From a candidate division WOR-3 bacterium (GTDB lineage Bacteria > Hydrothermota > Tepidihabitantia > Tepidihabitantales > Tepidihabitantaceae): 64,000 nucleotides of DNA. Positions 7,877-63,325 of the stretch are shown here, one piece after another (the first letter of the stretch is position 1; each line of letters opens with the position of its first letter). The stretch is from assembly GCA_965648905.1 (NCBI GenBank), contig CBFGIT010000001.1, positions 8,704-72,703 of the forward strand. The letters run 5' to 3'. The position numbers and the translations under genes were made by a program. A model generated the notes under the pieces. That model did not search any database, was not told the DNA's origin, and saw only the letters and a program-made list of their open reading frames with translations.

Positions 7877-8903
7877 CGGCGTTGGCCGCTGGCTCACAGC
7901 CTCAGGCCCGGACTCGGACGTCGTCATCTCCTCGCGCATCCGACTGGCCCGCAACCTCGCCGGCGTGCCGTTTGTCCCGCGCGCCAAGAAAACCGAGCAG
8001 GAACAGGTCATCGACGCAGTCCGCTGGGCACTCAACGCCGCCGGACTTGACAACTCAGGCCGGTTCATCGACGACCCGCTCCTCTCAGAAAACCAGGGCC
8101 AGTATCTCCTCGAACGGCACATTATTTCCCCGGACTTCCTCTCCTCCAAAGCGCGACGCGGCCTGTACGTCAACACCGACGAGACCCTCAGTCTCATGGT
8201 CAACGAAGAAGACCATCTCCGGCTCCAGGTCCTGGCCTCAGGCCTGGCGCTCCTTGACGCGCTCCAAACCGCGCTCAGCCTCGACGACAAACTCGAAGCC
8301 CAGGTTCAGTACGCCTTCTCGCCCGAATTCGGGTTCCTCACCGCGTGCCCGACCAACGTCGGCACCGGCCTGCGGGCCTCGGTCCTGGTCCACCTGCCCG
8401 GCCTGGTCCTGACCCGGGAAATCGACAAAGTCCTGCGCGGCGCACTCCACATCGGACTCGCCGTACGTGGACTCTACGGCGAAGGCAGCGAAACCAGAGG
8501 CAACTTCATCCAGATCTCCAACCAGAAAACGCTGGGCCAGTCCGAACAGGAAATCGTCGACTCGGTCGCCGACATCAGCCGTCAGGTCGTGGATTACGAG
8601 CGCAAGGCCCGCGAGTACCTGATGAAGAACCTGCGCATCGAGCTTGAAGACAAAGTCTTCCGATCCTTCGCCATTCTCAAGGGCGCGCGCATCCTCTCAT
8701 CCGACGAAGCGATCAACCTGATTGCGACCCTGCGGCTCGGAGTCGCGCTGGGAATCGTCAATGAGATTGACCTGGCAGGGGTGAGCCGGTTGCTGATTCT
8801 GGTGCGGCCGGCCAATCTGCAGGCAATGCTCGGTGAGACTCTTGAGGCTGCCCAGCGTGATGAACGGCGGGCGGCGTTTGTCCGCGAGACCCTGGTGCGG
8901 TGA
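7860..8903 (+). CDS. mcsB: protein-arginine kinase McsB (ATP:guanido phosphotransferase family)
   Basis: N-terminus MKLGSNGVGRWLTASGPDSDVVISSRIRLARNLAGVPF and a phosphagen-kinase catalytic domain are typical of McsB. Confidence 0.8.
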   Translation: MKLGSNGVGRWLTASGPDSDVVISSRIRLARNLAGVPFVPRAKKTEQEQVIDAVRWALNAAGLDNSGRFIDDPLLSENQGQYLLERHIISPDFLSSKARRGLYVNTDETLSLMVNEEDHLRLQVLASGLALLDALQTALSLDDKLEAQVQYAFSPEFGFLTACPTNVGTGLRASVLVHLPGLVLTREIDKVLRGALHIGLAVRGLYGEGSETRGNFIQISNQKTLGQSEQEIVDSVADISRQVVDYERKAREYLMKNLRIELEDKVFRSFAILKGARILSSDEAINLIATLRLGVALGIVNEIDLAGVSRLLILVRPANLQAMLGETLEAAQRDERRAAFVRETLVR

Positions 8904-10285
8904 TGAATGATAAGGGCGTGATGTTTCGTTCCCTGCCTTCGGTCGACAGGTTGCTTGCCGATGCCCGGCTCGGCCCGGTCCTTGGCCGGGTGCACCGACG
9001 GATGGCGGTGCGGGCGGTAAGGGAGTATCTGGAGGAGGTGCGGGCCGACATCACTGCGGGACGAACTCGGGAGTTCTGTATCGAGGAACTGCGGGAGCGG
9101 CTTGAAGGCGAGATTCGGCCGACTCTGGTCCGTGCAATCAACGGCCTCGGTGTCATCCTGCACACCGGTCTCGGTCGGGTTCCTTTGTCGCGCGCAGCGC
9201 ATGAAGCGCTGGCCGATGCGGCCGAGCACTTCTGCTGTCTCGAGATTGACCGCACCACCGGTCGCCGCGGCAGCCGGTACCGGCACATCGAGCCTCTTCT
9301 CTGCGAGCTGACCGGCGCGGAAGCGGCCATGGTCGTGAACAACAACTGCGCGGCAACGCTCCTAATTCTCACCGGCCTGGCGCGCGGCCGGGAGGTTGTG
9401 GTCTCGCGCGGCCAGCTTATCGAAATCGGCGGTGCGTTCCGGATTCCGGAGGTGATGCTTCAGAGTGGTTGTCGAATGGTCGAGGTTGGCACGACCAACC
9501 GTACCCATCTGCGTGACTACCGCAGCGCCATTAGCGCCGATACGGCACTGCTGTTGCGCGTCCACACTTCGAACTACCGGATCACCGGTTTCACCAAAGA
9601 AGTCGGGCTTGACGAGTTGGTCGCGCTCGGGAAAGAGCACTCGATCCCGGTTGTCGACGACCTGGGCTCGGGCGCACTCATCGACCTTTCGAAGTACGGT
9701 CTGCCCAAGGAGCCGCTGGTACAGGAGTCGGTTGCGGCGGGCGCAGACCTGGTCTGCTTCTCCGGCGACAAACTCATCGGCGCATCCCAGGCCGGGATCA
9801 TTGTCGGCCGGAAGAAGTACGTTGACCTGCTCAAGAAACACCCATTGACCCGGGCCCTGCGCTGCGGCAAGCTCACCTATGCGGTACTTGAACGTACTCT
9901 CCTGCTTTTTCTCGACGAGGAGCAGGCCGTGAAGGAGCACGCTTTGTTCCAGTTGCTTCTGAAGCCGGTGGCGCAGTTGCAGACTGAGGCGACCGCACTG
10001 AAACGCCGGGTCGGCCCGGCCCTGGCTGGTAAGGCTGAACTGCGGGTCCGGCCGTGCCGGGCTGAAGTCGGCGGCGGTTCGCTTGCGACCGAGAGCCTTG
10101 AATCCCGTTGCCTGGCCCTGAAGCCAAGAGCCATTTCTGTGGACGAGCTTGCCCGCCGGATGCGGCGCAACCGCCCGCCGGTGTTCGGTCGGGTCGAGCA
10201 CGACGAATACCTGCTCGACTTTCGCACGATTCGCCGGGATGAAATCCCCTTGATCGCTCAAGCCCTGCTTGCCGCGCTGAGCTAG
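8900..10285 (+). CDS. selA: L-seryl-tRNA(Sec) selenium transferase SelA
   Basis: 461 aa with N-terminal LPSVDRLL and a PLP fold-type I core typical of SelA. ATGA overlap with mcsB. Confidence 0.9.
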   Translation: MMNDKGVMFRSLPSVDRLLADARLGPVLGRVHRRMAVRAVREYLEEVRADITAGRTREFCIEELRERLEGEIRPTLVRAINGLGVILHTGLGRVPLSRAAHEALADAAEHFCCLEIDRTTGRRGSRYRHIEPLLCELTGAEAAMVVNNNCAATLLILTGLARGREVVVSRGQLIEIGGAFRIPEVMLQSGCRMVEVGTTNRTHLRDYRSAISADTALLLRVHTSNYRITGFTKEVGLDELVALGKEHSIPVVDDLGSGALIDLSKYGLPKEPLVQESVAAGADLVCFSGDKLIGASQAGIIVGRKKYVDLLKKHPLTRALRCGKLTYAVLERTLLLFLDEEQAVKEHALFQLLLKPVAQLQTEATALKRRVGPALAGKAELRVRPCRAEVGGGSLATESLESRCLALKPRAISVDELARRMRRNRPPVFGRVEHDEYLLDFRTIRRDEIPLIAQALLAALS

Positions 10286-10304: not shown

Positions 10305-11204
10305 ATGCTCCACCTTTCGGTTGACGTCGCTTCCCGGTCAGGCCGGGGCCTGCGCACTGCAGGCCCGCTGGTTGCTTTGGCCCTTGCAACCGCGGCCGCG
10401 GTCGCAAGTGTTTTCGGACTAGACGAGGTACAGAAGGTTGCTGGTTCCTGGTGGTTCGTTGCCGCCGCGTGTCTGTGCGGGCTGAGTGGTCTTGTCGGTG
10501 CGGTCAGACTGATTGGGCAGCGAAGACGGACGGCTGCGCTGTCACACTTCGGACTCGCACTCGGAATCGTCGGCATCCTTCTGAACCAGACCTTGAGTCG
10601 CGGCGGCTACCTGTTCCTGCCGGTTGGAGCCGGAGCACGGAACTACTGCCTAGCACAGAACCTGAAGGGGGTTGTTGAGCTGCCGTTCTCGGTTCGGCTC
10701 GACTCGCTCGGGGTGCGGACCAGCCGTGGCTTCAGACCTGCGCCCGCGGCACTTATCCGCGCCACGGCCGGCACGAAAGCTTTCGCCGCATCACTGACTT
10801 GGAACCATACCGTCACGGTCGATGGTTACCGGCTGGTGCTGTCCCGTGTCGTTGAGCAAGGGTTCCTTGAAGAGTACGAACTGGCGGTGGGCGAAGACGA
10901 ATACTCGCTCCTGCACAACCAGCGTGTCCGTCTCCGGCCCGGACTGGAAGTCACAAGCTTCGGCTTCGACGTCGAACACAAACAGGTCGGTCTGGTCGTG
11001 AACAATACCCGGCAGTGGCTTGCAGTCGGCGATTCGGCAGCGGTCGAAGGCGCACGTCTGCGACTGACTGCGGCATCTTTCGCACCAGCAGTTGGGGCGG
11101 TATTCGTCGCTAACGACGTCCGGCTGCGGCCGGTGCTGTTCATCGGCTTTGGTCTTGTGCTTCTGGGACTGCTGGGCGAGGCTCTTAGGAGAGCCGAACC
11201 GTGA
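10305..11204 (+). CDS. short ResB/CcsB-like cytochrome c biogenesis membrane protein (putative)
   Basis: 299-aa membrane protein whose stop overlaps the ccsA start (ATGA). It is called by position and topology only and is much shorter than canonical ResB. Confidence 0.4.
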   Translation: MLHLSVDVASRSGRGLRTAGPLVALALATAAAVASVFGLDEVQKVAGSWWFVAAACLCGLSGLVGAVRLIGQRRRTAALSHFGLALGIVGILLNQTLSRGGYLFLPVGAGARNYCLAQNLKGVVELPFSVRLDSLGVRTSRGFRPAPAALIRATAGTKAFAASLTWNHTVTVDGYRLVLSRVVEQGFLEEYELAVGEDEYSLLHNQRVRLRPGLEVTSFGFDVEHKQVGLVVNNTRQWLAVGDSAAVEGARLRLTAASFAPAVGAVFVANDVRLRPVLFIGFGLVLLGLLGEALRRAEP

Positions 11205-49673: not shown

Positions 49674-52600
49674 CTAGCGCTGGAGCACGAGTTTCTGACT
49701 GACTGAGTAAACGCCTGCGTTCAGACGCACCGTGTATACGCCGGCACTCAAGCCACGCAGGTCGAGCGGCAATGACGAAGTCCGAATGCCGAATGACGAG
49801 CGGAGGACGCGGCGGCCTGAGGCGTCGTAGATGCTGATGCTCGGGACACGATCCGAAATGCCGGGCACTTGGGTCATGTCCCAGCACAGCGTGGCGAAGC
49901 CGGAGCGGAGCGGGTTGGGCGTGATGGTGAACCCGGCCGGTCGCCTATCGAACGCCGAGGCCAGTACGCCAGACCGGGCTGCCCGGCCCGTGGCCAGGGG
50001 CAGTACGGTTGAGCCCGGTGTGTACATCCAGAACTCCTGGGTCTTGTTGCCCTTGAGCGCAAAGCACATGCCGGATCGGCCTGATACGTAGGGCGTGATG
50101 TCGCCGCCGAGCTTGACCTTCTTCTTCTTGCCGGTCGAGCCAAGCTCGGGCATCGCTTCCTGTTCCTGCCAGGAGTCGGCGGCAGCCAGGTATTTCCACA
50201 GCTCGGTTGTGTTACCGCCTTTGAGCGCGTAGACGCCGTCGTGCAACCACGCACCGGCCGCGCCGTCTTTCGACTTCTTGGACTTGCCCAGTCGGCCGAT
50301 GAGCGGCATGCCCGGCCGATTCGGACCCCAGGCATCGTCGATGATGTCATAGGCGAAGAGGACGTGATACTTGGCCTGGTGCACAAACACGGTCCGGTCG
50401 TCGTCATAGACCGCAAACGAGCCCGGGCCGAGCTTAAGTACGGGCGCGGGAATTGAGGCAAGTGGAGTCCAAGAGTCACTCACCGGGTCATAGCGGTAGA
50501 ACTCGTTCTTGTCGCCCTTGACAAGGTAGACCTTGCCCTGGGCATACGCGACATCAGCGCCGCCTTTGACCCGCCGGTTTGAGGTGCCGAGCGGGACCGG
50601 CTCAAGGGCTGACCAGGAGTCGTGTGCCGCATCGTACCGGTAGAAGCCCTGGGTGTTGTTGCCTTTGACCATGTAGACCAGGCCGTTACCGTCAGCGCAG
50701 GCATTGGCGCCTTTGCCGACCAACTTGTTCTCAACTCCGGCCGGAATCGGGCGGCGTGCGCTCCAGGAGTCGCCGACCGGGTCATAGGCGTAGAAGTCCG
50801 CGGTCTTGCCCCCGGCCGCAGCGTAGACCTTCATCGTTGCCGGCTCACCGACAACAAACGCACCAGCCTTGGCCGCAAGGGGCAGGCGGGCACGTTCAAG
50901 CCAGGGCGGCGGCGGCGGCCCGGTGATGAAGCTGAACTGACCGGTGAGCGTATCGTTGGCCGGGTTACCGTCGTAGGCAACACTGGTCGAGCAACGAGTC
51001 GTGTAGCTGCCTGGATCGTGTGGTTTGGGCAGAGTATCAAAGCCTACCATCACCGAACTGCCCGGAGCCAGACTGGTGACCGTGCGGCTGCTTGAGTAGA
51101 TGACCGAGTTGGCCTGGTCCAGAATCCGGAAGAACACGGTCGGCGCAGCGGCAAAGTTGCCCTGGTTGCGCACGGTTGCTGCCGGCACAACGACTGCGCC
51201 GGTATCGACACTGCCGACCGGAGAGTTGATTGCGCTCACGCCCACGTCCACCCGGCCGACGGTGAATGCCTGAGCTAGCGAATCGTTCGCCGGCACTTGA
51301 TCACCGCTCATCCTTGAGCGGCAGACCGCAGTGTACGATCCGGTCCAGGCATCCCAGTTCGGGAAGGTCGCGGTTGTATCGACACCCGAGGGCAGACCCA
51401 GAGGCAGGTCCAGGCTCTCAAGATACGCGGGCGATGAGTTGATGGCGAAGAACAGGCGGACCGGGTCGCGCTGCGTGCCGTAGTTGTGCACGACCGCGGC
51501 TGGCATGGTCGGCCCGGGCGGCACCATGCCTGAGGGCGACACAATCTGCGTTACACCGACATCACGCACCGCAACATAGACCGTGCCAAGCACCGTGTCG
51601 TTCGCGGCTACCATGTCTGCGGCGAGCATGGTCGTGCATCTTGTTGCTAGGGCACCGCGCTGGAGCGCGGTCCAGGACGCAAAGTTCACCGCCTGCGATG
51701 CACCGGCAGCCAGATTGGTCACGGTCTGGGTGTTCGAGTAGCCAGAGCCGATGTTGAGCCGGACATTGAACGTCGCCGCCTGAGTCCCGTTGTTCCGGAC
51801 TGTGGCCTGGGGCGCAATCACTGCGCCCGAATCGACCGTGCCGGTCGGAGCATTGATCGATACTGCCTCGGCGTCGAGCACGCGGACAAACACGTTCCCG
51901 GTCGCGATGTTGTTAGCCGGAACCATGTCACCAGTCAGCATCGTGGTGCATCTTGTCGCCAGAGTGCCGCGCTGGAGCGCGGTCCAGGACGCAAAGTTCA
52001 CCGCCTGTGACGCACCGGCGGCCAGATTGGTCACGGTCTGGGTGTTCGAGTAGCCGGAGCCGATGTCGAACCGGACATTGAATGTCGCCGCCTGAGTCCC
52101 GTTGTTCCGGACTGTGGCCTGGGGCGCAATCACTGCGCCCGAATCGACCGTGCCGGTCGGCACATTGATTGATACTGCTTCAGCATCGAGCACGCGCACA
52201 AGAACTGACCCGGTGTCACGGTCATTAGCCGGGGCAATGTCACCCGGGAGTTCGGTCGAGCATCGCACCACCTGGATACCGCGCGGCCAGTTCGAGCCGG
52301 CCAAGAAGGTCACATAGCGTGCCGTGCCCGGCGCATGAGCGGTGATGGCTGCGATCTGGTTGTAGCTCGACCCGATTCTCATCCGCACCTGGTAATCAAC
52401 CGTGCTCGAGCCGTAGTTGTACACTGTGCAGGCCGGAACCACCGACTGGGTCGAGTCGATCGTGCCGGTTGGTACTATGATGCGGCGCACGCCGACGTCG
52501 CCGACCTGGCGGCTGACGTCACCGGTAATGGTCCAGGCAAAGGGCTGGCGCGCGCTCGTTGCCACTTGGAAACCGTAAACCCGGATCGTCCAGACCCCGG

Positions 52601-54605
52601 TCGCCGGTGAGTTGACGCGGACGCACTCCTCAACGTTCAGCGTATCCCAGACAGTCGGGTTCGGCGTTGACTGGCCCCCAGAATACTGGTTGCCGCGATA
52701 GACTGTTCCGCCCGGAGCAATCACTTCGAGGTTCAGGTTGTTGACCAGGGTGCGCGACGCGCTGGGCGCGGCTGCAGTGTCGGTCCAGGCCAGGGCAACT
52801 CGCAGCGGAATCGAGGAGTTCACCACGAACTGCTCTTCCTTGTACTGGCCGGTGCTCACGCCCGAGGTGTCGTCTTTGATAATCAGCTTGCGCGTATCAC
52901 CAGCAAAATAGAGCACCGAGTCAGCATCAATCCGGCCCCAGCCGATATCGAAGCTAGGCACGACGTACGACCCGATGTTCGGGTCAGCCGAAGCAACGGC
53001 CATCGAACGCAGCAGGGCCGCGCTGATATACGAGATGCTGTCAGCCGGGTTCGCAGTTCCGGTCGGATAGTAGCCCTCACGCAGATAGCAGCGCATCAAA
53101 CCGACCGTGCCGTTGACTGCTGGCGTTGCCATTGAAGTTCCGGACATCTGCTGGTAGGTATTGGTCCCGGACGACGTCGCCGAGTACAGATTCACCCCTG
53201 GCGCGCAGACCGTCGGCTTCAGCCGATTGTCCGCGGTCGGCCCGCGGCTGGAAAAACTGGCAATGGCGTTCGACGAAGTGCCGTTCTGGGTCGCACCGAC
53301 CGTAATCACGTTCTTGGCAATACCGGGATTGCGGATCCGCCGCGTGCTCGTCTCGTTGCCGGCAGCCATGATATTGAGGAAATCCTTGTATACCCAGGAG
53401 TAGTTGTCGGTCGAGGCGTCCATCAGCAGATAGGTTCCGCTCGAGTTGGACCAGCCCCAACTTCCCGAGTGCTGACGAATCGGCCGCAGCGAGTCAGGCA
53501 GACCCCGGCCAAGATAGACCGAGTCCCAGAGCGGAGTCAGGTCATCGCTGATGACGAAGGTCCCGGAGCTGTTGGTCAGGTCAACAAAGTAGAGGCGTCC
53601 CTTGATTGACATGCCATCGTAGTAGCTGGTCCCGCCCGTGACCGAGTCGTCGCCCGCCACCGTGCCGTTGACGTGGCTGCCGTGGTAGGGCGTTTCACCC
53701 TGTTGTGCGCCCTGATACAGCTTGAACGCAACGACTTTGCGGTGCGTCGGCCATATCCCGGGCGCAGTCACCGACAGGTTCGGGTCACGGAAAAGGTTAT
53801 GGCCAAGGTTCAGTCCGGTGTCGGTCGTTGATAGAATCACCCGCTGGCCGCGCACACCTTTCGCCCAGACCTTGCGCGCCGTCATGCTCGTGTCCGGCGG
53901 CGCAGTTGACTGCCAGCCGGTCTGCACGACCCACTGGCAGTTGTTGTTACACAGCTCAGGCTCGGTCCAGAGCTGAACCCAGATAACCTCCTGCAGCCGG
54001 GCAATCGCCGGTATTGCCGAGGCCGGAACCGTCACCGTTATCGACGTGCAGAACTCAGACTCGACCACATCGGCATACGCCGCACCCTGGTCAGCCAGCA
54101 CCTGAAGAATGGGTCGGTGCTCCTCGCCCGGGGTCACGACGATGACCAGTTTGACGCTGCCCGAAGCACTAAGCAGTACGTCCTGTAACTTGTACGCCGG
54201 CTGAAACAGACCGACCCAGTGCACCATCGGCAATGCCTGGACTGCGGCCTTCTGGGCCGGTTCGAGCTTGGCCAGAACCGCGTAGCTCGGCAGGTAGCCG
54301 AAAGGCCGGACATCAATTCGCCTGAGCTCCTGATACCACTCCGGCCTTATCGGGCCGTTGAACTGGATGATGTGGTAGGCAGGGCCGGGCTGGTGTTCGG
54401 AAAGCGCCAGCTCCGGCGGGATTGCAGACACGCCGGTTCGGGTATCGACCACGAACCCGTTGGAAAAACTGACTTCGTTCAGCTCATTTCCTGCCACCGG
54501 GTCAAAGTGCCGCGCCGGGCCCATGCTGTAGTGCGATGACGGTCGGGCAGAACCGTTGCTGGCCAGCGCGCAAAGAACGGACAGGCAAACGACGAGCGCT
54601 TTCAT
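49674..54605 (-). CDS. subtilisin-like serine protease (S8) with I9-like propeptide, tandem CARDB domains, kelch-like beta-propeller and T9SS C-terminal sorting domain
   Basis: Catalytic triad motifs TDTGLNLGHNLF (Asp), HGSHVNGTVAG (His) and MSGTSMATP (Ser). Signal peptide from ATG 54605 with an AGGAGG SD. CTD ends VYTVRLNAGVYSVSQKLVLQR. Contains a tandem 312-bp duplication. Confidence 0.9.
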   Translation of the reverse strand: MKALVVCLSVLCALASNGSARPSSHYSMGPARHFDPVAGNELNEVSFSNGFVVDTRTGVSAIPPELALSEHQPGPAYHIIQFNGPIRPEWYQELRRIDVRPFGYLPSYAVLAKLEPAQKAAVQALPMVHWVGLFQPAYKLQDVLLSASGSVKLVIVVTPGEEHRPILQVLADQGAAYADVVESEFCTSITVTVPASAIPAIARLQEVIWVQLWTEPELCNNNCQWVVQTGWQSTAPPDTSMTARKVWAKGVRGQRVILSTTDTGLNLGHNLFRDPNLSVTAPGIWPTHRKVVAFKLYQGAQQGETPYHGSHVNGTVAGDDSVTGGTSYYDGMSIKGRLYFVDLTNSSGTFVISDDLTPLWDSVYLGRGLPDSLRPIRQHSGSWGWSNSSGTYLLMDASTDNYSWVYKDFLNIMAAGNETSTRRIRNPGIAKNVITVGATQNGTSSNAIASFSSRGPTADNRLKPTVCAPGVNLYSATSSGTNTYQQMSGTSMATPAVNGTVGLMRCYLREGYYPTGTANPADSISYISAALLRSMAVASADPNIGSYVVPSFDIGWGRIDADSVLYFAGDTRKLIIKDDTSGVSTGQYKEEQFVVNSSIPLRVALAWTDTAAAPSASRTLVNNLNLEVIAPGGTVYRGNQYSGGQSTPNPTVWDTLNVEECVRVNSPATGVWTIRVYGFQVATSARQPFAWTITGDVSRQVGDVGVRRIIVPTGTIDSTQSVVPACTVYNYGSSTVDYQVRMRIGSSYNQIAAITAHAPGTARYVTFLAGSNWPRGIQVVRCSTELPGDIAPANDRDTGSVLVRVLDAEAVSINVPTGTVDSGAVIAPQATVRNNGTQAATFNVRFDIGSGYSNTQTVTNLAAGASQAVNFASWTALQRGTLATRCTTMLTGDMVPANNIATGNVFVRVLDAEAVSINAPTGTVDSGAVIAPQATVRNNGTQAATFNVRLNIGSGYSNTQTVTNLAAGASQAVNFASWTALQRGALATRCTTMLAADMVAANDTVLGTVYVAVRDVGVTQIVSPSGMVPPGPTMPAAVVHNYGTQRDPVRLFFAINSSPAYLESLDLPLGLPSGVDTTATFPNWDAWTGSYTAVCRSRMSGDQVPANDSLAQAFTVGRVDVGVSAINSPVGSVDTGAVVVPAATVRNQGNFAAAPTVFFRILDQANSVIYSSSRTVTSLAPGSSVMVGFDTLPKPHDPGSYTTRCSTSVAYDGNPANDTLTGQFSFITGPPPPPWLERARLPLAAKAGAFVVGEPATMKVYAAAGGKTADFYAYDPVGDSWSARRPIPAGVENKLVGKGANACADGNGLVYMVKGNNTQGFYRYDAAHDSWSALEPVPLGTSNRRVKGGADVAYAQGKVYLVKGDKNEFYRYDPVSDSWTPLASIPAPVLKLGPGSFAVYDDDRTVFVHQAKYHVLFAYDIIDDAWGPNRPGMPLIGRLGKSKKSKDGAAGAWLHDGVYALKGGNTTELWKYLAAADSWQEQEAMPELGSTGKKKKVKLGGDITPYVSGRSGMCFALKGNKTQEFWMYTPGSTVLPLATGRAARSGVLASAFDRRPAGFTITPNPLRSGFATLCWDMTQVPGISDRVPSISIYDASGRRVLRSSFGIRTSSLPLDLRGLSAGVYTVRLNAGVYSVSQKLVLQR
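51597..52220 (-). repeat. near-perfect tandem duplication (2 x ~312 bp) encoding two almost identical CARDB domains inside the S8 protease gene
   Basis: Landmark gctggagcgcggtccaggacgcaaagttcaccgcctg recurs 312 bp apart. The translated repeats are >95% identical. Confidence 0.8.
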
Positions 54606-54689
54606 GGTGCCTCCTGGATTATTGCTCTGGACCGGGTGAAGTAATCCTACCGGGCATACCATGAAGTGTCAAAATCGGCCGGGCCGATG

Positions 54690-54717
54690 TTGAACCTCTG
54701 CCGGACTTGGCTAGAAT
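54690..54717 (+). promoter_or_regulatory. candidate promoter TTGAAC-16 nt-TAGAAT for the mttB-like operon
   Basis: Located in the 150-bp divergent intergenic region, ~35 nt upstream of ATG 54756. Confidence 0.35.
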
Positions 54718-54755
54718 CGCTTTCTATCCGCCGAACCTGCCCGAAAGGACCACTC

Positions 54756-56210
54756 ATGCGACCCGTACTGCGCCTGTTATCCGACAGCCTGGTTGAACAG
54801 GTCCTGGCCGAAGCCCGGACTCTCCTCTGCGGTCTGGGAATGATCGTGCACAACGACGCGGTGTTGCGACTGCTTGGTGAGCACGGTGCCGAAGTTGACC
54901 TTGCCCGCCACCATGTTCGGTTCAACAACGACATTATCGACTATGGCCTCAAATCCGCTCCCCGCTCATTCAAGCTGTTCGACCTGCTCGGCAACCAGAC
55001 CCATGAGTTTGCTGGCGACAACGTCTATTTCACCCCTGGCTCGGCCGCCTTGAATATCCTTGACTCCAGCACCGGCCAGATGCGGCGACCGAAGACTCCG
55101 GACTATGTCGAGTACGTTAAGCTCGTAAGCGGGCTTGACCACCTTGCGGCTCAGAGTACGGCGCTGATTCCTGATGACGTGCCGGAGCGCATCTCGGACA
55201 GCTATCGGCTGTATCTGAGCCTGCTCTTTGGCGAGAAGCCGGTTGTCACCGGCTGCTTCACTATCGAGTCGTTCGCGGTGATGCGTGACATGCAGGTCAC
55301 GGTCCGGGGTTCAATTGAGGCGCTTGCAGCCAAGCCGCTCACCATTTTCTCCTGCTGCCCGACTGCCCCGCTCAAGTGGAGCGATGTTACTTCTCAGAAC
55401 CTGGTCGACTGCGCAACCTGCGGCATTCCGGTCGAGTTCATCTCGATGCCTTTGTCCGGGTTCATGGCTCCGGTCACGCTCGTGGGAACACTGGTACAGC
55501 ACACGGCTGAGACCCTGAGCGGAGTAGTCATCAGTCAACTTGCCCGGCCGGGTACGCCGGTCCTCTATGGCGGCTCGCCGGCAATCTTCGACGTGCGGCG
55601 CGAAACCACGCCGATGGGTGCAATCGAGACGATGATGACCGACTGCGCTTACTCGGAAATCGGCAAGCATCTTGGCCTGCCGACCCAGGCCTATATTTCC
55701 TTGAGTGATGCCAAACTGCTCGATGCGCAGGCCGGACTTGAGACCGGGGTCGGCGCAATTCTCGCTGCCCTTTCTGGGATCAACAGCGTCTCCGGCCCGG
55801 GTATGCTCGACTTCGAAAGCTGCCAGAGCCTTGAGAAGCTCGTGCTCGACAACGAAGTCTGCGGCATGGCTGTGCGTCTTGTGCAGGGCATCGAGCCGAA
55901 GGACGACTTTCCAGCGCTGCCGCTCTTTGAGGAGCTGCTCAAAGAAGGTCATCTGCTCATCAGCCGCCATACCCGGCGCTGGCTCAAGACCGAGCACTTT
56001 TTCCCGGGTCCGGTTATTGATCGCGCCAACCACGGCCGCTGGCTTTCCGAGGGTGCTCTGACTCTGGCTGAGCGTGCCCGGCAGGAGAAAGAGCGTATCA
56101 TCAGTCGCTGGCAGCCGACAAGACTGCCTGAGGATGTGAAGAGAGAGCTGACCCGTCTGATGAGTGCTGAAGCCCGTCGCTGCGGGATGGAGCGCCTGCC
56201 CGCACTGTGA
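54756..56210 (+). CDS. MttB-superfamily (trimethylamine methyltransferase-like, non-pyrrolysine) substrate:corrinoid methyltransferase
   Basis: 484 aa with full-length similarity to the MttB/MtgB family (COG5598) and no in-frame UAG. Internal ATG with an aaagga SD. Confidence 0.85.
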   Translation: MRPVLRLLSDSLVEQVLAEARTLLCGLGMIVHNDAVLRLLGEHGAEVDLARHHVRFNNDIIDYGLKSAPRSFKLFDLLGNQTHEFAGDNVYFTPGSAALNILDSSTGQMRRPKTPDYVEYVKLVSGLDHLAAQSTALIPDDVPERISDSYRLYLSLLFGEKPVVTGCFTIESFAVMRDMQVTVRGSIEALAAKPLTIFSCCPTAPLKWSDVTSQNLVDCATCGIPVEFISMPLSGFMAPVTLVGTLVQHTAETLSGVVISQLARPGTPVLYGGSPAIFDVRRETTPMGAIETMMTDCAYSEIGKHLGLPTQAYISLSDAKLLDAQAGLETGVGAILAALSGINSVSGPGMLDFESCQSLEKLVLDNEVCGMAVRLVQGIEPKDDFPALPLFEELLKEGHLLISRHTRRWLKTEHFFPGPVIDRANHGRWLSEGALTLAERARQEKERIISRWQPTRLPEDVKRELTRLMSAEARRCGMERLPAL

Positions 56211-56929
56211 GAGCTATCTGCCGATTCGCTGCCACCGACTGCATTCCAGACCGGAGAGACGTGCTTTCAGCCGAAGGCATGGCTGGTTCGAGCCCGGCTT
56301 CAGCCGTGACCGAAGAGCTTCTTACCCGCGCCTTGGCCATGTTCAGCGCGAAGGCAACTCCGGTCGGTGTCTACGCCGACATCAGTATTCCAGAGTTCAG
56401 CGCGGTCTTTGCCGGCGAAGGTCAGAACGACCCTGAGGCGCCGCTTCGTAATATCTTCCCGAGAGCAGACAAGCTCGCCTTGTTTGCCTGTACGGTCGGC
56501 CCAGAGCTGAACCGGCAAATAGCTGACCTGTTCGAGCAGCACGAGTACGCGCTCGGGTATGTGCTTGACGCGGTTTCATCCTGCGGTACCGAGCGTCTTG
56601 CCGACCTGGTTCAGGCTGGCTGGGCGCGGGACATGAACGAATTGTCCGACAATTCGTATCGTGTCCCAAGCCCGCTGGTCGCCCTCGCCTACAGCCCGGG
56701 CTACTGCGGCTGGCACGTTTCTGCTCAGCGGCAGCTGTTCCGGTTTCTGAGGCCGGAGGAGATCGGCATCACCCTCAGGGAAAGCTGCCTGATGGAGCCG
56801 CTCAAGTCGGTTTCGGGCGTGTTCGTTCTTGGCCCGAGAGAGATTCACCAGTTCGACAACACTCTTGGTTTCTGCACCGAGTGTCGGTCTGCCACCTGTC
56901 GCGGCCGGCAGCAATCAGCAAAGGAGTAA
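56207..56929 (+). CDS. MetH-type AdoMet-binding reactivation domain protein (Met_synt_B12-like)
   Basis: C-terminal region AYSPGYCGW..ITLRESCLMEPLKSVSGVFVLGP matches the MetH activation domain signature (RYSxGY..LTESxAMxPxxSVSG). The start is GTG 56207 (overlapping the MttB stop) or ATG 56279. Confidence 0.6.
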   Translation: MRAICRFAATDCIPDRRDVLSAEGMAGSSPASAVTEELLTRALAMFSAKATPVGVYADISIPEFSAVFAGEGQNDPEAPLRNIFPRADKLALFACTVGPELNRQIADLFEQHEYALGYVLDAVSSCGTERLADLVQAGWARDMNELSDNSYRVPSPLVALAYSPGYCGWHVSAQRQLFRFLRPEEIGITLRESCLMEPLKSVSGVFVLGPREIHQFDNTLGFCTECRSATCRGRQQSAKE

Positions 56930-56930
56930 G

Positions 56931-57566
56931 ATGGAACTACTAGCTCAACTTGGTCAGGCACTGGAGCAGGGCGATGAAGAACGCACTGCCGAACTTGCCC
57001 GGCAGGCGGTCGCAGCCGGCATCCCGGCCAAAGCAATACTCAACCAGGGGCTGATTGCGGGCATGAACAGCGTCGGCGTTCTGTTCCGCGACGGCGAGAT
57101 ATTCCTGCCTGACGTGCTGCTTGCGGCCCGGGCAATGTATGCCGGACTGGACGTAGTCAAACCTCTGCTCGTCGAACAGAAGGTCGAGCCGCTCGGCCGG
57201 GTTGTCATCGGCACGGTTCAGGGCGACCTGCACGACATCGGCAAGAACCTGGTCGGCATCATGCTGCGGGGCGCCGGGTTCGAAGTCATCGACCTGGGCA
57301 ACGACGTTGCACCCGAGCGGTTTGTCGACACGGCGGAAAAAGAAGGCGCACGGGTCATCGGCCTCTCGGCTTTGCTGACGACCACGATGCCGGTGATGAA
57401 AAAGGTATGCGACCTGGTGACGCAGCGCAACCTGCACGACCGCATCAAGGTCATCATCGGCGGCGCACCGGTGACCGAGGAGTATGCCCGACAGATACAG
57501 GCTGATGCCTACGGCTTTGACGCCGCAGCCGCAGTCGATCGGGTCAAACAGCTCATGGGGACATGA
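56931..57566 (+). CDS. cobalamin-binding corrinoid protein (B12-binding_2 + B12-binding, DxHxxG)
   Basis: GDLHDIGKN motif and a Rossmann B12-binding domain, 211 aa. SD aaggag; starts 1 nt after the upstream stop. Confidence 0.85.
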   Translation: MELLAQLGQALEQGDEERTAELARQAVAAGIPAKAILNQGLIAGMNSVGVLFRDGEIFLPDVLLAARAMYAGLDVVKPLLVEQKVEPLGRVVIGTVQGDLHDIGKNLVGIMLRGAGFEVIDLGNDVAPERFVDTAEKEGARVIGLSALLTTTMPVMKKVCDLVTQRNLHDRIKVIIGGAPVTEEYARQIQADAYGFDAAAAVDRVKQLMGT

Positions 57567-57604
57567 CCAAATCTCGCCTGGGAGATTCGGATCGTGTCCC
57601 CGGA
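57559..57604 (+). repeat. mini-repeat copy 1 (ACATG..AATCTCGCCyGGGAGATTCGGATCGTGTCCCCGGA) with internal 9-bp inverted repeat
   Basis: Spans the start codon of the Hcy-methyltransferase gene and encodes MTKSRLGDSDRVPG. Confidence 0.7.
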
Positions 57605-58519
57605 CCGCTGCTTGCTGACGGCGCGCTCGGTTCGTTGCTGATGGAGCGCGGACTTGCGCCTGGTGAGCCGCCTGAGACGTTTTGCCTTTTTCGACCGGAC
57701 GTGCTGACCGAAATCGTGCGCCAGTACGCTGCCGCTGGTGCTAAGGTGTTCCAGGCCAACACGTTTGGTGCTTCGCCCTTGAAGCTCGCCCGTCACGGAC
57801 TCGAATCCCGCTGCGAAGAAATCAACCAGACAGCGGTTCGTATCGTGCGCGAAGCAGTAGCCGGCAAAGGTCTTGTCTGGGCCTCAGTGGGCCCGAGCGG
57901 TTGCCTGCTTAAGCCATACGGTGACACCGACCCGGAGCGTGTCTGCAGGAGCTTTCTTGCACAGGCGCAGGCACTGGCTCGGGCCCGGCCTGATATCGTC
58001 GCGGTCGAGACCATGACCGACCTTGCCGAAGCAGTACTGGCAGTCAGGGCAGTGCGCACAGCCATGCCGGCGGTGCAACTGGCAGCAACCATGGTCTTTG
58101 ACAAGCGCAGGCGAGGCTTCTTCACGGTCATGGGCAACACGATTGCGGACTGTGTGCAGGCACTGGCTGACGCTGGTGCGAACATGGTCGGCTCCAACTG
58201 CGGCAACGGTATCGAGACCATGGTACAAATCGCCCGCGAGTTCAGGCAGGTGACCAGCCTGCCGCTTGTAATTCGCCCGAACGCCGGCCTGCCCCAGGTC
58301 ACTGCTGGCAGGGACACGGGAGACATGCCCGAATCTCGCCCGGGAGATTCGGATCGTGTCCCCGGAACGCACAAGGTGACGTATCCTGAGACACCGGAAT
58401 TCATGGCTGCGCACCTGCCGGAGCTGCTCGAACAGGGCCTGGCGATTGTCGGCGGCTGCTGCGGCACAACACCAGACCACATCCGTGCGTTCCGCGCCGT
58501 GCTCACGGGAATGTCCTGA
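57563..58519 (+). CDS. homocysteine S-methyltransferase domain protein (MetH N-terminal Hcy-binding module)
   Basis: Zinc-ligand motifs NCG and GGCCGTTPDHI plus ADGALGSLL (DGAMGT-like). ATGA overlap with the corrinoid gene. Carries two copies of a ~46-bp mini-repeat in-frame. Confidence 0.8.
   Translation: MTKSRLGDSDRVPGPLLADGALGSLLMERGLAPGEPPETFCLFRPDVLTEIVRQYAAAGAKVFQANTFGASPLKLARHGLESRCEEINQTAVRIVREAVAGKGLVWASVGPSGCLLKPYGDTDPERVCRSFLAQAQALARARPDIVAVETMTDLAEAVLAVRAVRTAMPAVQLAATMVFDKRRRGFFTVMGNTIADCVQALADAGANMVGSNCGNGIETMVQIAREFRQVTSLPLVIRPNAGLPQVTAGRDTGDMPESRPGDSDRVPGTHKVTYPETPEFMAAHLPELLEQGLAIVGGCCGTTPDHIRAFRAVLTGMS
58320..58366 (+). repeat. mini-repeat copy 2 (same ~46-bp element, ~90% identical) inserted in-frame in a loop of the Hcy-methyltransferase
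   Basis: Encodes DMPESRPGDSDRVPG, a ~20-aa insertion relative to MetH between the NAGLP and GGCCGT regions. Stem CCGAATCTC/GAGATTCGG. Confidence 0.7.
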
Positions 58520-58553: not shown

Positions 58554-60902
58554 ATGCTCATACTGAAAAAACTCGTGCCCGTGCTCGGCCTGTTCCTGGG
58601 CAATCTGGCCCTGGCCCAGTTGACCGAACTGTCAGAAGAAGACAAGACCCTGTCGCCCTATTTCTTTGTCCAGAGCGACGACCCGTCAGTTGACCGACTG
58701 CCGCTGCTCAAGACCGAAGCGACAGTTGACATCGCCGGCGTCATCGCCGATGTGAAAGTCACCCAGGTTTACAAGAACGACGGCAAGCGGCCGATTGAGG
58801 CAGTTTACACGTTCCCGGCCTCGACCCGCGCCGCAGTCTACGCCATGAAGATGACCATCGGTGACCGGACCATTGTTGCCCGGATCAAGGAACGTGATGA
58901 GGCCCGCCTCGACTACGAAGCGGCCAGACAGCAGGGCAAGAGCGCCTCGCTCTTAGAGCAGCAGCGGCCCAACGTGTTCCAGATGAACGTGGCGAATATC
59001 ATGCCCGGCGACTACATCAAAGTCGAGATGAGTTATACTGAGCTGCTCGTGCCTGTCTCCGGCGTGTATGAGTTTGTCTACCCGACCGTGGTTGGCCCGC
59101 GCTACAACGGCAAGGCCGGGTCCGAGTCGCACAAGCCAGAGCAGTGGGTCAAGAGTCCCTACACCCGCGAGGGCGACGCACCGAGCTACGAGTTCGGCCT
59201 GACGGTCAATATCGTGGCCGGGATGCCACTACAGGACGTCTCCTGCCCGACCCATAAGACAATGATTGCTTTCAACGGCTTGAATGAGGCGAGCGTGCGG
59301 CTCGACCCGTCAGAGAAAGCCGGCGGCAACCGCGACTTCATCCTGCGCTACCGACTCGCCAGCAGCGGAATCCAGACCGGCCTCTTGCTCTACCCGGGCA
59401 AGGACGAGCAGTTCTTCCTCCTTATGCTGCAGCCGCCCAAAAGGGTTGAGGTCAGCCAGATTCCAGCGCGCGAGTACATCTTCATACTCGACGTGTCCGG
59501 CTCGATGCACGGGTTCCCTTTAGACATCTCCAAGAAGCTGATGCGGAACCTGCTCTCCAACCTGCGGCCCAAAGACTGCTTCAACATCCTGTTCTTCTCC
59601 GGCGGCAACTTCGCACTTTCGGAAAAGTCGCTGCCTGCGACCGAGAAGAACGTTGCGGATGCGCTTGCGACAATCGAAAAGCAGCGGGGCAGCGGCGGAA
59701 CTGAACTCTTGCCCGCGCTCAGGCACGCGCTGGCGCTGCCGCGTACTGAAGGCGCGTCGCGCACCGTGGTCATTGCCACCGACGGCTACGTGACGGTCGA
59801 AACCGAGGCGTTCGACCTGATTCGGGACAATCTGGACAAGGCCAACCTGTTTGCTTTCGGCATCGGCTCCAGCGTCAACCGGTACATCATCGAAGGCATG
59901 GCCCATGTCGGAATGGGCGAGCCATTCATCATCGACAAGCCGGAACGAGCCGAGGCCCAGGCCGAGAAGTTCCGAGCGTACATCGAAACTCCGGTGCTCA
60001 CCGGTATCGACATCGACTTCCCCGGATTCGACGCCTATGACGTCGAGCCGAAGACTGTTCCGGACGTGACTGCGGACCGGCCCATCATCGTCTTCGGCAA
60101 GTACCGCGGCAGAGCCTCGGGTGCAATTACGGTACGCGGCTGGGCTGGCAAGGGCGGATACTCTGAGGCCGTCAAAGTCACTGACTTCCCGCCGGACAAG
60201 AGGAACGCGGCCTTGCGCTACCTCTGGGCGCGACACCGGATTCAGCTTCTTGCTGACTACAACAACCTCGACGAGGACAAAGAGCGGGCCAAGGAAGTCA
60301 CCAGGCTTGGCCTTGAGTACAACCTGCTGACCCGATACACCTCGTTTGTTGCCATTGACCAGCAGGTGCGTAATGTCGGCGGTAGACCAGAAGTTGTGGA
60401 GCAGCCGCTGCCCATGCCCGAAGGCGTATCCGACTATGCAGTCAGTGGCCGTGGGGTTGCCGGGTACTCTGGTTTGTACAAAGTCGGACGTCCATTTCTC
60501 GGTTCCACCAGTGCGCCGACCAGTGGTGGAGCGCTCATGCCCGAACCTGAAGCCGCATCCCAGTCCCCGGTGCTGCGTGGTACAGTCCGGCTTGTCAAGC
60601 TCGAGGCAATTGGCGGTCGGTCCGAGCAGTCGGTCAAAGGCGTCATCGAGAAGAAGCTTGCGGACATCCGGGCCGCATACGTACAGGAGCTTGCGACCGA
60701 CCCAACGCTCGCGGGCAGGCTCGCGCTTGAGTTCACCATCGGGCCTGACGGCACGGTACGCGAAGCCAGGGCGGTGCGCAACGAACTGAGCCCCGGACTT
60801 GAGCGCAAGGTGCTCGAACTCGTGAGAAGCCTTCGCTTCCAGAAGTTTCAGGGCCGCACTACAACCGTATCGCTGGCCCTTGATCTAAGGCCATGGCCAT
60901 GA
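58554..60902 (+). CDS. secreted VIT + von Willebrand factor type A domain protein
   Basis: Signal peptide, VIT-like N-domain, vWA MIDAS motif DVSGSM, and a C-terminal domain of unknown type. Confidence 0.8.
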   Translation: MLILKKLVPVLGLFLGNLALAQLTELSEEDKTLSPYFFVQSDDPSVDRLPLLKTEATVDIAGVIADVKVTQVYKNDGKRPIEAVYTFPASTRAAVYAMKMTIGDRTIVARIKERDEARLDYEAARQQGKSASLLEQQRPNVFQMNVANIMPGDYIKVEMSYTELLVPVSGVYEFVYPTVVGPRYNGKAGSESHKPEQWVKSPYTREGDAPSYEFGLTVNIVAGMPLQDVSCPTHKTMIAFNGLNEASVRLDPSEKAGGNRDFILRYRLASSGIQTGLLLYPGKDEQFFLLMLQPPKRVEVSQIPAREYIFILDVSGSMHGFPLDISKKLMRNLLSNLRPKDCFNILFFSGGNFALSEKSLPATEKNVADALATIEKQRGSGGTELLPALRHALALPRTEGASRTVVIATDGYVTVETEAFDLIRDNLDKANLFAFGIGSSVNRYIIEGMAHVGMGEPFIIDKPERAEAQAEKFRAYIETPVLTGIDIDFPGFDAYDVEPKTVPDVTADRPIIVFGKYRGRASGAITVRGWAGKGGYSEAVKVTDFPPDKRNAALRYLWARHRIQLLADYNNLDEDKERAKEVTRLGLEYNLLTRYTSFVAIDQQVRNVGGRPEVVEQPLPMPEGVSDYAVSGRGVAGYSGLYKVGRPFLGSTSAPTSGGALMPEPEAASQSPVLRGTVRLVKLEAIGGRSEQSVKGVIEKKLADIRAAYVQELATDPTLAGRLALEFTIGPDGTVREARAVRNELSPGLERKVLELVRSLRFQKFQGRTTTVSLALDLRPWP

Positions 60903-61441
60903 ACGGACCAGACACAAACGACCTGATTGTCGGGTTCTACTCAGGCGCGTGCCCTGATCATGCTGGCCGCACATTGGACCAGATTCTGGGCTGGGACGAT
61001 GAACGCCTGGAAGAAGTCCACGACTACATCCAGTGGCTCTTTCCCATGGAACAGCCCAGCCCGGTCAACCCATCTGCTCCAGTGGTTCGGGAGGGGACCC
61101 GGCGTGCGTTCAAAACAAGCCCGCTCCTGCGCGACAACCTGTGTCGCGCCTGTGCGCGGATGCTTGCCTTCTACGGTCTTGAGTGCGACCACGATGCTCT
61201 GAGTCCAGATGTCGTGCCCGGAGAAGACTTCGCCGACAAGTCGGGCCACTGGATGCATCCCGGTAACCACAATCTGCTCCGGCTTACAAGGATTCTGACC
61301 AGTCTGCGCCTGCTCGGCCGAAGTCAGTGCTCAAAGAGCATCCATGCATGCTTGTCCCGACTCGCTGCCGAACACCCCACGCGCATCCCGACTATGACCT
61401 TGCGCTTCTGGGATAGCACCCAGTCAGCGCCCGAGCCGTAA
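60893..61441 (+). CDS. hypothetical protein, possibly OGFr-N-like conserved domain
   Basis: HDYIQWLFP motif region; 182 aa; overlaps the upstream gene by 10 nt. Confidence 0.45.
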   Translation: MAMNGPDTNDLIVGFYSGACPDHAGRTLDQILGWDDERLEEVHDYIQWLFPMEQPSPVNPSAPVVREGTRRAFKTSPLLRDNLCRACARMLAFYGLECDHDALSPDVVPGEDFADKSGHWMHPGNHNLLRLTRILTSLRLLGRSQCSKSIHACLSRLAAEHPTRIPTMTLRFWDSTQSAPEP

Positions 61442-61474: not shown

Positions 61475-63325
61475 CTACAGCTTGACCAGCGTTACCGGAC
61501 CTGGGCGAGCTGCTGAATCGACGCGGCGCACAACATAGGTGCCGGCAGGAAGTTCACTCAGGTCCAGCTCGATGCTGACGTCAGTTCCAGAACAGCCTAC
61601 TGCCATGAGGAGCTGGCCGGCTATGTCGTAGATACCGAATGTCTTGCGGCCTGGCCCGGTCACGCGCAACAGAGCGCGCGACCCAGTGACCGGGTTGGGC
61701 CAAAGCGATAGCCGCTCCGGCCGAGTCGGGGCAGCCGGTGCTTCCACGCCGGGCACCGGACCAGCAATAACCAGCTTGCCATAAGCCGATGACGCAAGCA
61801 GGGAGTCTCCAGACAGCTCGGTCCGCCACCAGCCCGGCCAGGTACTGTCGCCGAGCATGCCGAGGAAAGCAACTCCAACCGTATCGCCGGTCGGGTCAAT
61901 GTCCAGCTTGTACGGCAAAGTGCCGACGGGAACCGCGGCCTCGAACACAAGGCTTCCACCCGCCACGCTCACCGCAGCCTGTGAGCCCGCGACCGGCGAA
62001 GGCGGCCCCATGACACCGGCGCGGACATAGCGGTACAGGAGCTGGCTGACGCCCTGCTCGTTCACCAAGGCAAAGTAAGCGCCCTCGCTCATGTCAGCCG
62101 GCCACCGGCCGTCGTTGTTCTCATCGCAGAGCAGGACCACCTGGTCGAACGTGTCACGCCGATGCACTGCTGGCATCTCCGCGGCGATGTAGAGGTAAGC
62201 CGAATCGTGCACGGACCAGCCGCGGACACTGCCAGCCGGGAACGAAAGTCCGTAGACACCGCCGACATTGGAGGCGTCAAAGAAAGCTGCCTGGTCCCAT
62301 TCATCCGGCATGAGCACGCCGTCAATCAACGGCGCCGGGCCCGCCGAGAATGAGGAACCGATAGTATCGGTCGAGACCATCAAGTGGGTTCGCATCGTGT
62401 CGTTACCCGGAACCTGGTCGCCAGGCAAACTGGTGAAGCACTCGACCTTGTATCCGGACCAGAGCTCGGCATTGGGAGTCCATGTGCCGGTGCACGTGAC
62501 CACGGCCGAGTCAGAAGGCGCAATCGAGCCCAGGACCAGGTTCTCGCTGAATATCCGGTTGCCGGCTGAGTCGATGCGTACCGTTACCGGCACGTTGGTC
62601 TGGGCCGCAGTGCCGAGGTTCGCCACCAGGCAGCTCGGCGTAACCGGAATGCTGCTGTGGAGCCGACCGCCTGCAGGTGCGATGATGCGGCTGACGGCAA
62701 CGTCGTTGGCCGGACGGGACAGAATGATGTCGTCGGCGAAGACCTTCGCCCAGGGCGTCCCTCAGCCGCCGCTGGTCCAGGCGTACAGCGCGACCCCGAC
62801 CTTGCGCACCCGTGCACGGCTGACTCCGCGCAGATTCTGCGCCAGCTCGTCAGCCAGATTCATCTCGTACTGCTGCCAGCCCGGATTGGTCACTTCAATC
62901 AGATGGAAGGTATCGGACGGGGCCCACGTGCAGTACTGGTTGTGGTAGTAGAAGTAGGTTTCACCCAGGACCGCGCCGGAAGAGTCAAGAAAACTGACCA
63001 TGATGCTTGCGACCGGCCAGCACGTGGACGAACCGCCACCCAGTTCGAATGCTGCCCAGAACGACAGGTCCATGGACAAAGTCGTGACCGGCACGACCTG
63101 ACGCAGAGCCAACCAGCCTGGCCCGGCGTAAAGGTAGCCTTGAGCTTCGTAGTCCGGGTCAGGATGGTAGGTGACGTCGCGGCCGAACGTGACCGTGCCG
63201 CTGCCGCCCTGTTCCTGATTCCAGCCCACGGTCAACTCCTGCTCAAAGTCACCGTTGGTGAGCAGATTCTGGGCTGGGGTCAGGCCCAGAGCGAGCAACG
63301 AGCAGACGATTACTCGGGCAATCAT
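61475..63325 (-). pseudogene. T9SS cargo gene (signal peptide + CBM4/9-like domain ... CARDB-like ... T9SS CTD) interrupted by one in-frame TGA at 62762-62764; pseudogene or candidate selenoprotein
   Basis: ORFs 62762..63325 and 61475..62626 are in the same frame and separated only by a TGA. The N-terminal part has a signal peptide and the C-terminal part ends in CTD GTYVVRRVDSAARPGPVTLVKL. Confidence 0.6.

Follow-up and report, generated by a model that had tools for sequence, protein, structure and literature searches.

The stretch of DNA analysed here (hereafter the window) comprises 64,000 nucleotides of contig CBFGIT010000001.1 (assembly GCA_965648905.1) from a candidate division WOR-3 bacterium, and close to one end of it, on the minus strand, lies a gene interrupted by a single in-frame UGA that is followed at short distance by an RNA hairpin. 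Comparison with related genes indicates that this UGA (62764..62762) is very probably a programmed selenocysteine (Sec) codon within one gene of 616 residues. The initial annotation had read the UGA and its hairpin as Sec recoding, a proposal that is now supported by conservation of the site, covariation within the hairpin, the behavior of homologs with a sense codon and linkage to selenium genes. The recoding mechanism itself is classical; what appears to be new is the selenoprotein family, which is exported, present in multiple copies, not thioredoxin-like and almost devoid of cysteine forms.

The complete selenoprotein gene (61475..63325, minus strand) consists of 617 codons, that is 616 residues and a TAG stop (61477..61475), and its frame runs from an ATG at 63325 with the TGA as sole interruption. 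The proposed Sec residue is encoded by codon 188 (62762..62764, minus strand) in the motif TSGG-U-GTPWAKVFADD, so that the read-through peptide across Sec188 would be VGVALYAWTSGG-U-GTPWAK. Mechanical calling of open reading frames (ORFs) divides the gene into one of 187 aa (62762..63325) and one of 383 aa (61475..62626), the latter beginning with a GTG at 62626 that is the first possible start downstream of the TGA and is separated from it by 46 codons. A check of the frame agrees with the earlier observation that both ORFs share one frame and that TGA 62762-62764 is the only stop between them. A scan of the window for further selenoprotein genes with an in-frame TGA, too noisy in high-GC sequence, revealed none.

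Searching proteins with the read-through sequence identified three orthologs in other assemblies, at 72, 74 and 59% identity (P0002-P0004), each of which is also called as two ORFs in its own assembly. The corresponding DNA (L001, L002 and L003) is colinear with the window gene and has TGA at the identical codon, within the motif YA(W/Y)TSGG-TGA-G(T/S)PWAKVFADD, and the 16-nt hairpin is identical across the orthologs, with differences at nearby synonymous sites. Divergence 3' of the TGA amounts to 0.39–0.41 at third codon positions, 0.17–0.21 at first and 0.13 at second positions, and the upstream part behaves alike.

More distant relatives were collected by a search with the N-terminal domain, which yielded 157 homolog clusters; of the 120 listed, nearly all have 179–198 aa and many bear the label candidate division WOR-3. 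When 47 homologs were aligned, all 46 truncated members were found to stop at one shared column, and a hydrophobic N-terminal leader is present in all aligned family members. A genome scan restricted to one genome per species returned 56 loci, mostly from WOR-3, with others in bins labelled TA06, Stahlbacteria, Cloacimonadota, Eiseniibacteriota and Desulfuromonas (this last possibly mis-binned), and the complete WOR-3 genome CP070680.1 carries at least four family copies. CP070686.1 and CP070664.1 are further complete genomes in which the family occurs. Metagenomes contributed 80 further loci. The codon at the site is TGA in 144 of 144 evaluable places (67 in species-representative genomes and 77 in metagenomes), never TAA or TAG, and these 144 places present 115 distinct local contexts around the UGA. 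Past the TGA the frame remains open for another 104–969 codons where the contig allows, without any frameshift seen, and identities within the family span 35 to 84%. The tails beyond the Sec domain are diverse, consisting of a sorting domain alone (ca. 105–114 codons), of an extra region of ca. 350 residues followed by a sorting domain, or of longer extensions of up to 969 codons.

Members with a sense codon at the site are rare. They were obtained from an exhaustive profile search, into whose profile the long tail of one homolog (P0005) had entered, so that the matches concern mostly an unrelated C-terminal domain; the search still yielded four non-Sec homologs (P0244, P0150, P0139 and P0146), with Cys, Val, Ala or Asp at the site. 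The codons are TGC for Cys in L063 (P0244), GTT for Val in L064 (P0150) and GCT for Ala in L065 (P0139). To the question whether orthologs have Cys or Sec at this position, the answer is almost always Sec (TGA), with P0244 supplying a Cys (TGC).

Downstream of the UGA, an 11-nt spacer GGGACGCCCUG (62751..62761, minus strand) leads to the hairpin GGCGAAGGUCUUCGCC (62735..62750, minus strand), which resembles a bacterial selenocysteine insertion sequence (SECIS), folds as GGCGAA-GGUC-UUCGCC with a 6-bp stem and the loop GGUC, and encodes (W)AKVFA. Alternatively it can be viewed as seven pairs closing on a GU dinucleotide. The hairpin first described here, 11 nt after the UGA and with a GGUC loop, thus stands with a stem of 6 bp, the description as 7 bp plus GGUC having counted two bases twice. 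Taken from the window alone the hairpin is not beyond chance, and its significance comes wholly from comparison with relatives; a TGA followed by such a hairpin occurs four times in the window against ca. 0.7 expected, the other three cases being out of frame or antisense.

Among relatives that have the UGA, the hairpin was detected automatically in 62 of 64 genome-derived and in all 77 metagenome-derived members, and it is visible by eye in the two remaining genome-derived ones, in one case with a mismatch. Of the 64 genome-derived members, approximately 36 have a spacer of 11 nt and most of the rest one of 14 nt, rarely 17 nt; in the metagenome set, 73 members have 11 nt and four have 14 nt. 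The spacer hence varies in whole-codon steps. Over 53 distinct hairpins, 316 of the 318 cells of the six core pairs are paired, and four of these six pairs are altered on both sides. When the loop-closing pair is included, 99.5% of cells are paired, five of the seven pairs have changed on both sides and 47 cells are compensatory, values that none of 500 shuffles reached; as a control, sliding the 3' partner by 1–3 columns left only 29–62% of cells paired. The first and last bases of the loop covary as well (G-C in 47, A-U in 5 and G-U in 1 of the 53 versions), no change is seen at its central G and U (columns G11 and T12), and GGUC, AGUU and GGUU are the only loops seen.

The stem takes many forms, including GGCGAA/UUCGCC, GGCGGA/UCCGCC, GGCAGA/UCUGCC, GGCGAG/CUCGCC and GGCAAG/CUUGCC together with GGCUAA/UUAGCC, GGCCGA/UCGGCC, GGCGUG/UACGCC, AGCGRA/UYCGCU and UGCGAG/CUCGCA. 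Several of the changes are paired synonymous exchanges at third codon positions, in which Ala GCG together with Phe or Ser TTC or TCC becomes GCA with TCT, GCU with UUA or GCC with UCG; likewise, changes of the base preceding the Ala codon are matched at the third position of the second Ala codon. The peptides encoded by the hairpin (AKVFA, AEVSA, ARVLA, AKVLA and AWVYA) show covarying residue pairs, K/F, E/S, R/L and W/Y, as pairing of the RNA requires. Furthermore, the hairpin is absent from all three sense-codon homologs examined (L063 with Cys, L064 with Val and L065 with Ala); L064 retains the peptide ARVLA but writes it with the codons CGG and CTT, which breaks the pairing. It is thus the UGA, and not the protein sequence, with which the hairpin is associated. 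A location 3' of the UGA, a suitable spacing, a GU in the loop and a helix maintained by compensatory change are all found, so that the layout of a bacterial SECIS is strongly supported by the comparative evidence and the hairpin is the predicted target of SelB.

The closest point of reference is the SECIS of Escherichia coli fdhF. This element (TGA, 11 nt and GGTTGCA-GGTC-TGCACC) was found at 99% identity or more in fdhF of 5413 E. coli records, the identity being 100% among the matches listed. In E. coli a distance of 11 nt separates the UGA from the upper stem-loop, and the conserved bases are U17, G23 and U24, of which U17 and G23 contact SelB (PMC8659212). The initial annotation had noted that GGUC is the fdhF loop and that the spacing fits a bacterial SECIS, and both statements are correct, fdhF having 11 nt and GGTC. 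The two elements have in common the in-frame UGA, the distance of 11 nt, a short stem-loop located within coding sequence and an apical GGUC with conserved G and U, and selA, selB homologs and tRNA-Sec likewise occur in family-bearing genomes. Unlike fdhF, the window hairpin has a perfect stem of 6 bp, or of 7 if the loop-closing pair is counted, beneath which no conserved lower helix was detected, the family shows a second spacing class of 14 nt, and the host gene encodes an exported beta-sandwich protein, whereas that of E. coli encodes a cytoplasmic molybdoenzyme. On the E. coli model, SelB carrying Sec-tRNA(Sec) would bind the hairpin 11 nt downstream of the UGA during translation, a hairpin with a 6-bp G+C-rich stem and a GGUC loop whose central G and U are family-invariant and whose outer bases are able to pair, and would then supply Sec to the ribosome that has reached the UGA. 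Decoding would yield a protein composed of a signal peptide, a beta-sandwich similar to carbohydrate-binding modules (CBMs) in which Sec188 occupies the turn that precedes the final strand, two more regions and a C-terminal sorting domain of the type IX secretion system (T9SS).

Residues around the proposed Sec point in the same direction. Cys102 of the window protein (codon TGC, 63020..63022, minus strand) lies in an SSTCWP motif, is invariant in the alignment of the N-terminal domain and is proposed as the selenenylsulfide partner of Sec188, from which it is 86 residues distant in sequence. Of 64 distinct Sec members, 40 have only the SSTCWP Cys, 18 only a Cys directly before Sec (C-U), three have both and three neither; all three of the latter contain UxxC or CxxU, such that a partner Cys is available in 64 of 64. 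Cys at the Cys102 site and Cys just before Sec almost exclude one another (Fisher p = 4e-10, uncorrected for phylogeny). In the Cys form P0244 the equivalent of Cys102 is gone (TSISWP) and an extra Cys occurs eight residues downstream (AEVCVDN). This pattern, as expected of a Sec with a resolving Cys, is the main reason for proposing a selenenylsulfide, which Sec188 most likely forms with Cys102 and which, in other subfamilies, would involve a Cys adjacent to Sec or three residues away. The site may accordingly be an extracellular redox-active one or one that binds chalcogens or metals. Selenoproteins with vicinal Cys and Sec are known (the CU rows in Table 1 of PMC13188914, for example MerB-like SaoL, HgcA and KCU-star) and 18 of the 64 members are likewise C-U, with three more having both arrangements; unlike those CU-motif selenoproteins, which are unrelated in sequence and fold, the window protein belongs to the subgroup with a distant partner Cys.

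The machinery for Sec synthesis is in part encoded in the window. The selA gene for L-seryl-tRNA(Sec) selenium transferase, noted earlier as lying upstream, was located at 8900..10285 on the plus strand, where it matches TIGR00474 with 560.8 bits (cutoff 267.9) over positions 1–453 of the 455 of the profile; it is a marker of the Sec-decoding trait in the source genome. The gene of McsB, a protein arginine kinase (7782..8903, plus strand), overlaps the start of selA by 4 nt, suggesting co-transcription, and downstream of selA, in the place of selB, there follow an ORF without family match (10305..11204), a CcsB-like ORF and a CCA-adding enzyme.

Two other loci place family genes next to selenium genes. 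In a WOR-3 bin (SZTDM_202302_bins_70.1; CBFGJZ010000037.1, 1–7932; L053) a selenium “island” presents, in this order, a selA fragment, selB (TIGR00475, 333.6 bits against a cutoff of 242), tRNA-SeC with anticodon TCA, an ORF for an Omp28-related selenoprotein, two family copies and an ORF with the motif U-PFC. The in-frame TGAs are at 3027 in the Omp28-related ORF (motif U-ASC), at 4550 and 6497 in the family copies and at 6719 in the U-PFC ORF, and the second family copy ends 18 codons after Sec, without a sorting domain. In candidate division TA06 bacterium DG_78 (LJNI01000052.1, 2329–4547; L059), a selA whose product is 48% identical to the window SelA ends ca. 350 nt upstream of a divergent family gene, which has the motif C-S-G-U and the hairpin variant GGCGUG-GGUU-UACGCC.

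Several observations count against a Sec codon and have to be set beside this evidence. Neither selB nor any tRNA gene is present in the 64-kb window, nor was selD found there, although no search aimed at it was made, and Rfam searches by gathering score and by E-value returned no SECIS or other family at the site. Folding z-scores of −0.46 and +0.32, a measure that tells little in such G+C-rich DNA, make the hairpin alone no better than shuffled sequence, and neither it nor those of relatives contains the bulged U (U17) needed by E. coli SelB, the stem being perfect. Cys homologs are rare (one was seen, in addition to Val, Ala and Asp forms), which is unusual for a selenoprotein family. The covariation statistics, like the Fisher test, were computed without phylogenetic correction, and one of the two patterns used to search metagenomes (A[EK]V[SF]AD..) is biased toward members that have the hairpin.

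Part of this would be equally compatible with programmed read-through independent of Sec, in which a near-cognate tRNA (Trp, Cys or Arg) decodes the UGA at low frequency with the hairpin as stimulator, giving a 187-residue product and a full-length secreted isoform. A conserved UGA, an open frame and a conserved hairpin are expected just as much under such a mechanism, and selB and tRNA-Sec were not seen in the window. The spacing and the invariant GU of the loop, however, fit the determinants of SelB, L053 and L059 show genes of the family in linkage with selA, selB and tRNA-Sec, and every member has a partner Cys in one of the arrangements (C-U, UxxC, CxxU or Cys102) typical of Sec redox sites. 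In addition, a natural Cys form exists, and the 187-residue product would miss the last strand of its domain together with the sorting signal, all of which makes read-through of this kind improbable.

Annotation pipelines call the locus as two genes, that is a secreted protein of 187 residues with a normal TGA stop and an independently started gene downstream. This arrangement is very improbable, seeing that the 46 codons from the TGA to the GTG at 62626 are conserved as protein and include the last beta-strand of the domain, that the downstream part has a T9SS sorting domain yet no signal peptide of its own, and that across the family neither TAA nor TAG takes the place of the TGA and no shift of frame occurs. 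A recent nonsense mutation or a base-calling mistake that splits an ordinary T9SS cargo gene, the alternatives raised in the initial annotation, would be compatible with a single window in which the hairpin is statistically ordinary. Both are excluded by the coding-type divergence downstream of the shared TGA, indicative of purifying selection, and by the recurrence of the same TGA in 144 places in independent assemblies from several candidate phyla, whose 35 to 84% identities show that they are not copies of one contaminated sequence; a mutation or error as origin of the TGA can hardly be credited.

There is virtually no chance that UGA stands for Trp or Gly in this lineage (code 4 or 25), as the W at the site in database protein P0005 might suggest, because that W is a TGA translated with code 4 and conserved window genes (McsB, YgiQ and CstA) terminate at TGA, so that the code in use is the standard one. 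Ordinary stops in the window are TGA about as often as TAG, and TGA is the normal stop, at the expected length, of McsB, YgiQ, CstA, the MttB-like gene and others. P0005 was also considered as a Trp homolog, which would have pointed to Trp read-through, and was rejected for the same reason, its DNA having TGA. The public entry derives from a short contig (L004, 382–2352 of a Logan SRR27730018 contig) whose gene was called with genetic code 4, and through artefacts of this type large protein collections can come to contain apparent “Trp homologs” of selenoproteins.

With the UGA read as Sec, the protein falls into several parts. It begins with a signal peptide MIARVIVCSLLALGLTPA (63272..63325, minus strand), read by eye from the translation and with an inferred cleavage site, which is followed by the Sec-containing beta-sandwich domain of CBM4/11/22-like fold (residues ca. 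19–202; 62720..63271, minus strand), whose last strand, WAKVFADDIIL, is encoded after the UGA. A middle region (61706..62719, minus strand) opens with a CARDB-like segment (NDVAVSRIIAP), continues with an uncharacterised domain and is conserved in P0002-P0004, with no Pfam match; the label CARDB-like derives from inspection of the motif only. Residues 541–616 (61478..61705, minus strand) form a T9SS type A C-terminal sorting domain, with a marginal 23.7 bits to TIGR04183 (cutoff 23) and 23.5 bits to Pfam PF18962, under its gathering score of 27. The 383-aa ORF, described initially as CARDB-like with a T9SS C-terminal domain, therefore keeps the latter by a marginal score and the former by motif alone. 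Among relatives, eight of ten read-through tails end in PF18962, six above the gathering score (27.2–44.3 bits) and two below it (23.4 and 25.1). As the sorting domain is encoded after the UGA, the export signal is made only if the UGA is decoded, and the combination of signal peptide and sorting domain suggests an exported, probably cell-surface, selenoprotein. A second and conventional T9SS cargo gene also occurs in the window (49674..54662, minus strand), encoding 1662 aa with Peptidase_S8, CARDB, Kelch and Por_Secre_tail domains.

Only the T9SS tail of the window protein matches curated models, and no relative of the protein is detectable by sequence in the PDB. The fold of the Sec domain was approached through an AlphaFold model of homolog P0005, in which the predicted local distance difference test (pLDDT) values are 87–98 over most of the N-terminal domain (blocks 31–210) and the Sec position is in a turn between the last two beta-strands. 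Foldseek related this model to CBM4 (3k4z), CBM11 (1v0a), CBM61 (2xom), 4xup, CBM22 and the sugar-binding domain of Fbs1, with a probability of 1.0 for 3k4z, 1v0a, 2xom and 4xup at sequence identities of 10–14%. The predicted fold is that of the galactose-binding-like beta-sandwich of CBM4, CBM11, CBM22 and CBM61 modules. An N-terminal “NGDFE” strand and a C-terminal “ADD..L” strand are typical of CBM-type modules. The likeness is at the level of fold only, the Sec domain having no Pfam match at E ≤ 0.1, including none to a CBM model, and unlike known CBMs the family has a conserved Sec with a partner Cys. Of the initial reading of the 187-aa ORF as a signal peptide with a CBM4/9-like domain, the leader was recovered by eye and the fold through Foldseek, and a CBM assignment by Pfam was not obtained.

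Elsewhere in the window, the only Rfam match above gathering score is PYLIS_3, the pyrrolysine (Pyl) insertion sequence of mttB, with 40.6 bits at 55701–55800. Its relevance to the UGA site was considered and rejected, as it sits in an unrelated and intact MttB-family gene, an ORF of 514 aa (54666..56210, plus strand) without in-frame TAG and with 246 bits to Pfam MTTB. This ORF is followed by a Met_synt_B12-like ORF (56207..56929) and a homocysteine S-methyltransferase-like ORF (57563..58519), and the region 54666..58519 looks like a non-Pyl MttB methyltransferase cluster in which the RNA match reflects coding homology. Adjoining the selenoprotein gene is an ORF of 182 aa (60893..61441, plus strand) that matches OGFr_N, the conserved region of the opioid growth factor receptor, with 65.8 bits, an odd occurrence in a bacterium.

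The family has no counterpart in the resources consulted. Neither NCBIfam (June 2026 release, including its curated selenoprotein families) nor Pfam has a model for the Sec domain, and none of the 119 prokaryotic selenoprotein families that a 2026 review lists in its Table 1 (PMC13188914) is comparable. Full-text literature searches on selenoprotein or selenocysteine with WOR-3, T9SS or type IX secretion returned nothing relevant; a prior mention is possible in a survey of groundwater metagenome-assembled genomes (Deng et al.), which as cited in PMC13188914 reports “potentially novel candidates”. A close parallel is the Omp28-related selenoprotein (NCBIfam NF045500; “hypothetical protein GOS_C” in Table 1 of PMC13188914), which is likewise predicted to be exported and whose copy in L053, situated between tRNA-Sec and the first family copy, has a signal peptide and a T9SS tail. 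Unlike the window protein, it has UxxC near the N-terminus and a different type of hairpin, and NF045500 gives the window protein no match.

Annotation pipelines split the genes of this family into a “hypothetical 187-aa protein” and a headless ORF, or read the UGA as Trp with code 4, and as a consequence more than 100 predicted public proteins are wrong and the family has been hidden. Correctly read, it becomes a concrete target for metaproteomics. Its hairpin offers a clean natural case of RNA structure constraining protein sequence, and as a compact SECIS near the E. coli type it may be usable for recombinant insertion of Sec.

Most known selenoproteins of bacteria are redox enzymes that reside in the cytoplasm and adopt thioredoxin-like folds. 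A family that occurs in multiple copies, is exported through T9SS and is built on a lectin-like beta-sandwich points to selenium use at the cell surface of uncultured anaerobes. A broader reading, judged slightly more likely than not, is that of a large and undescribed multi-copy family of exported cell-surface selenoproteins, CBM-like and not thioredoxin-like, in which Sec and Cys would form an extracellular redox or chalcogen/metal site, whose SECIS is small enough to dictate residues of a beta-strand (K/F, E/S and R/L), and which may be a main reason why WOR-3 and neighboring candidate phyla keep the Sec machinery.

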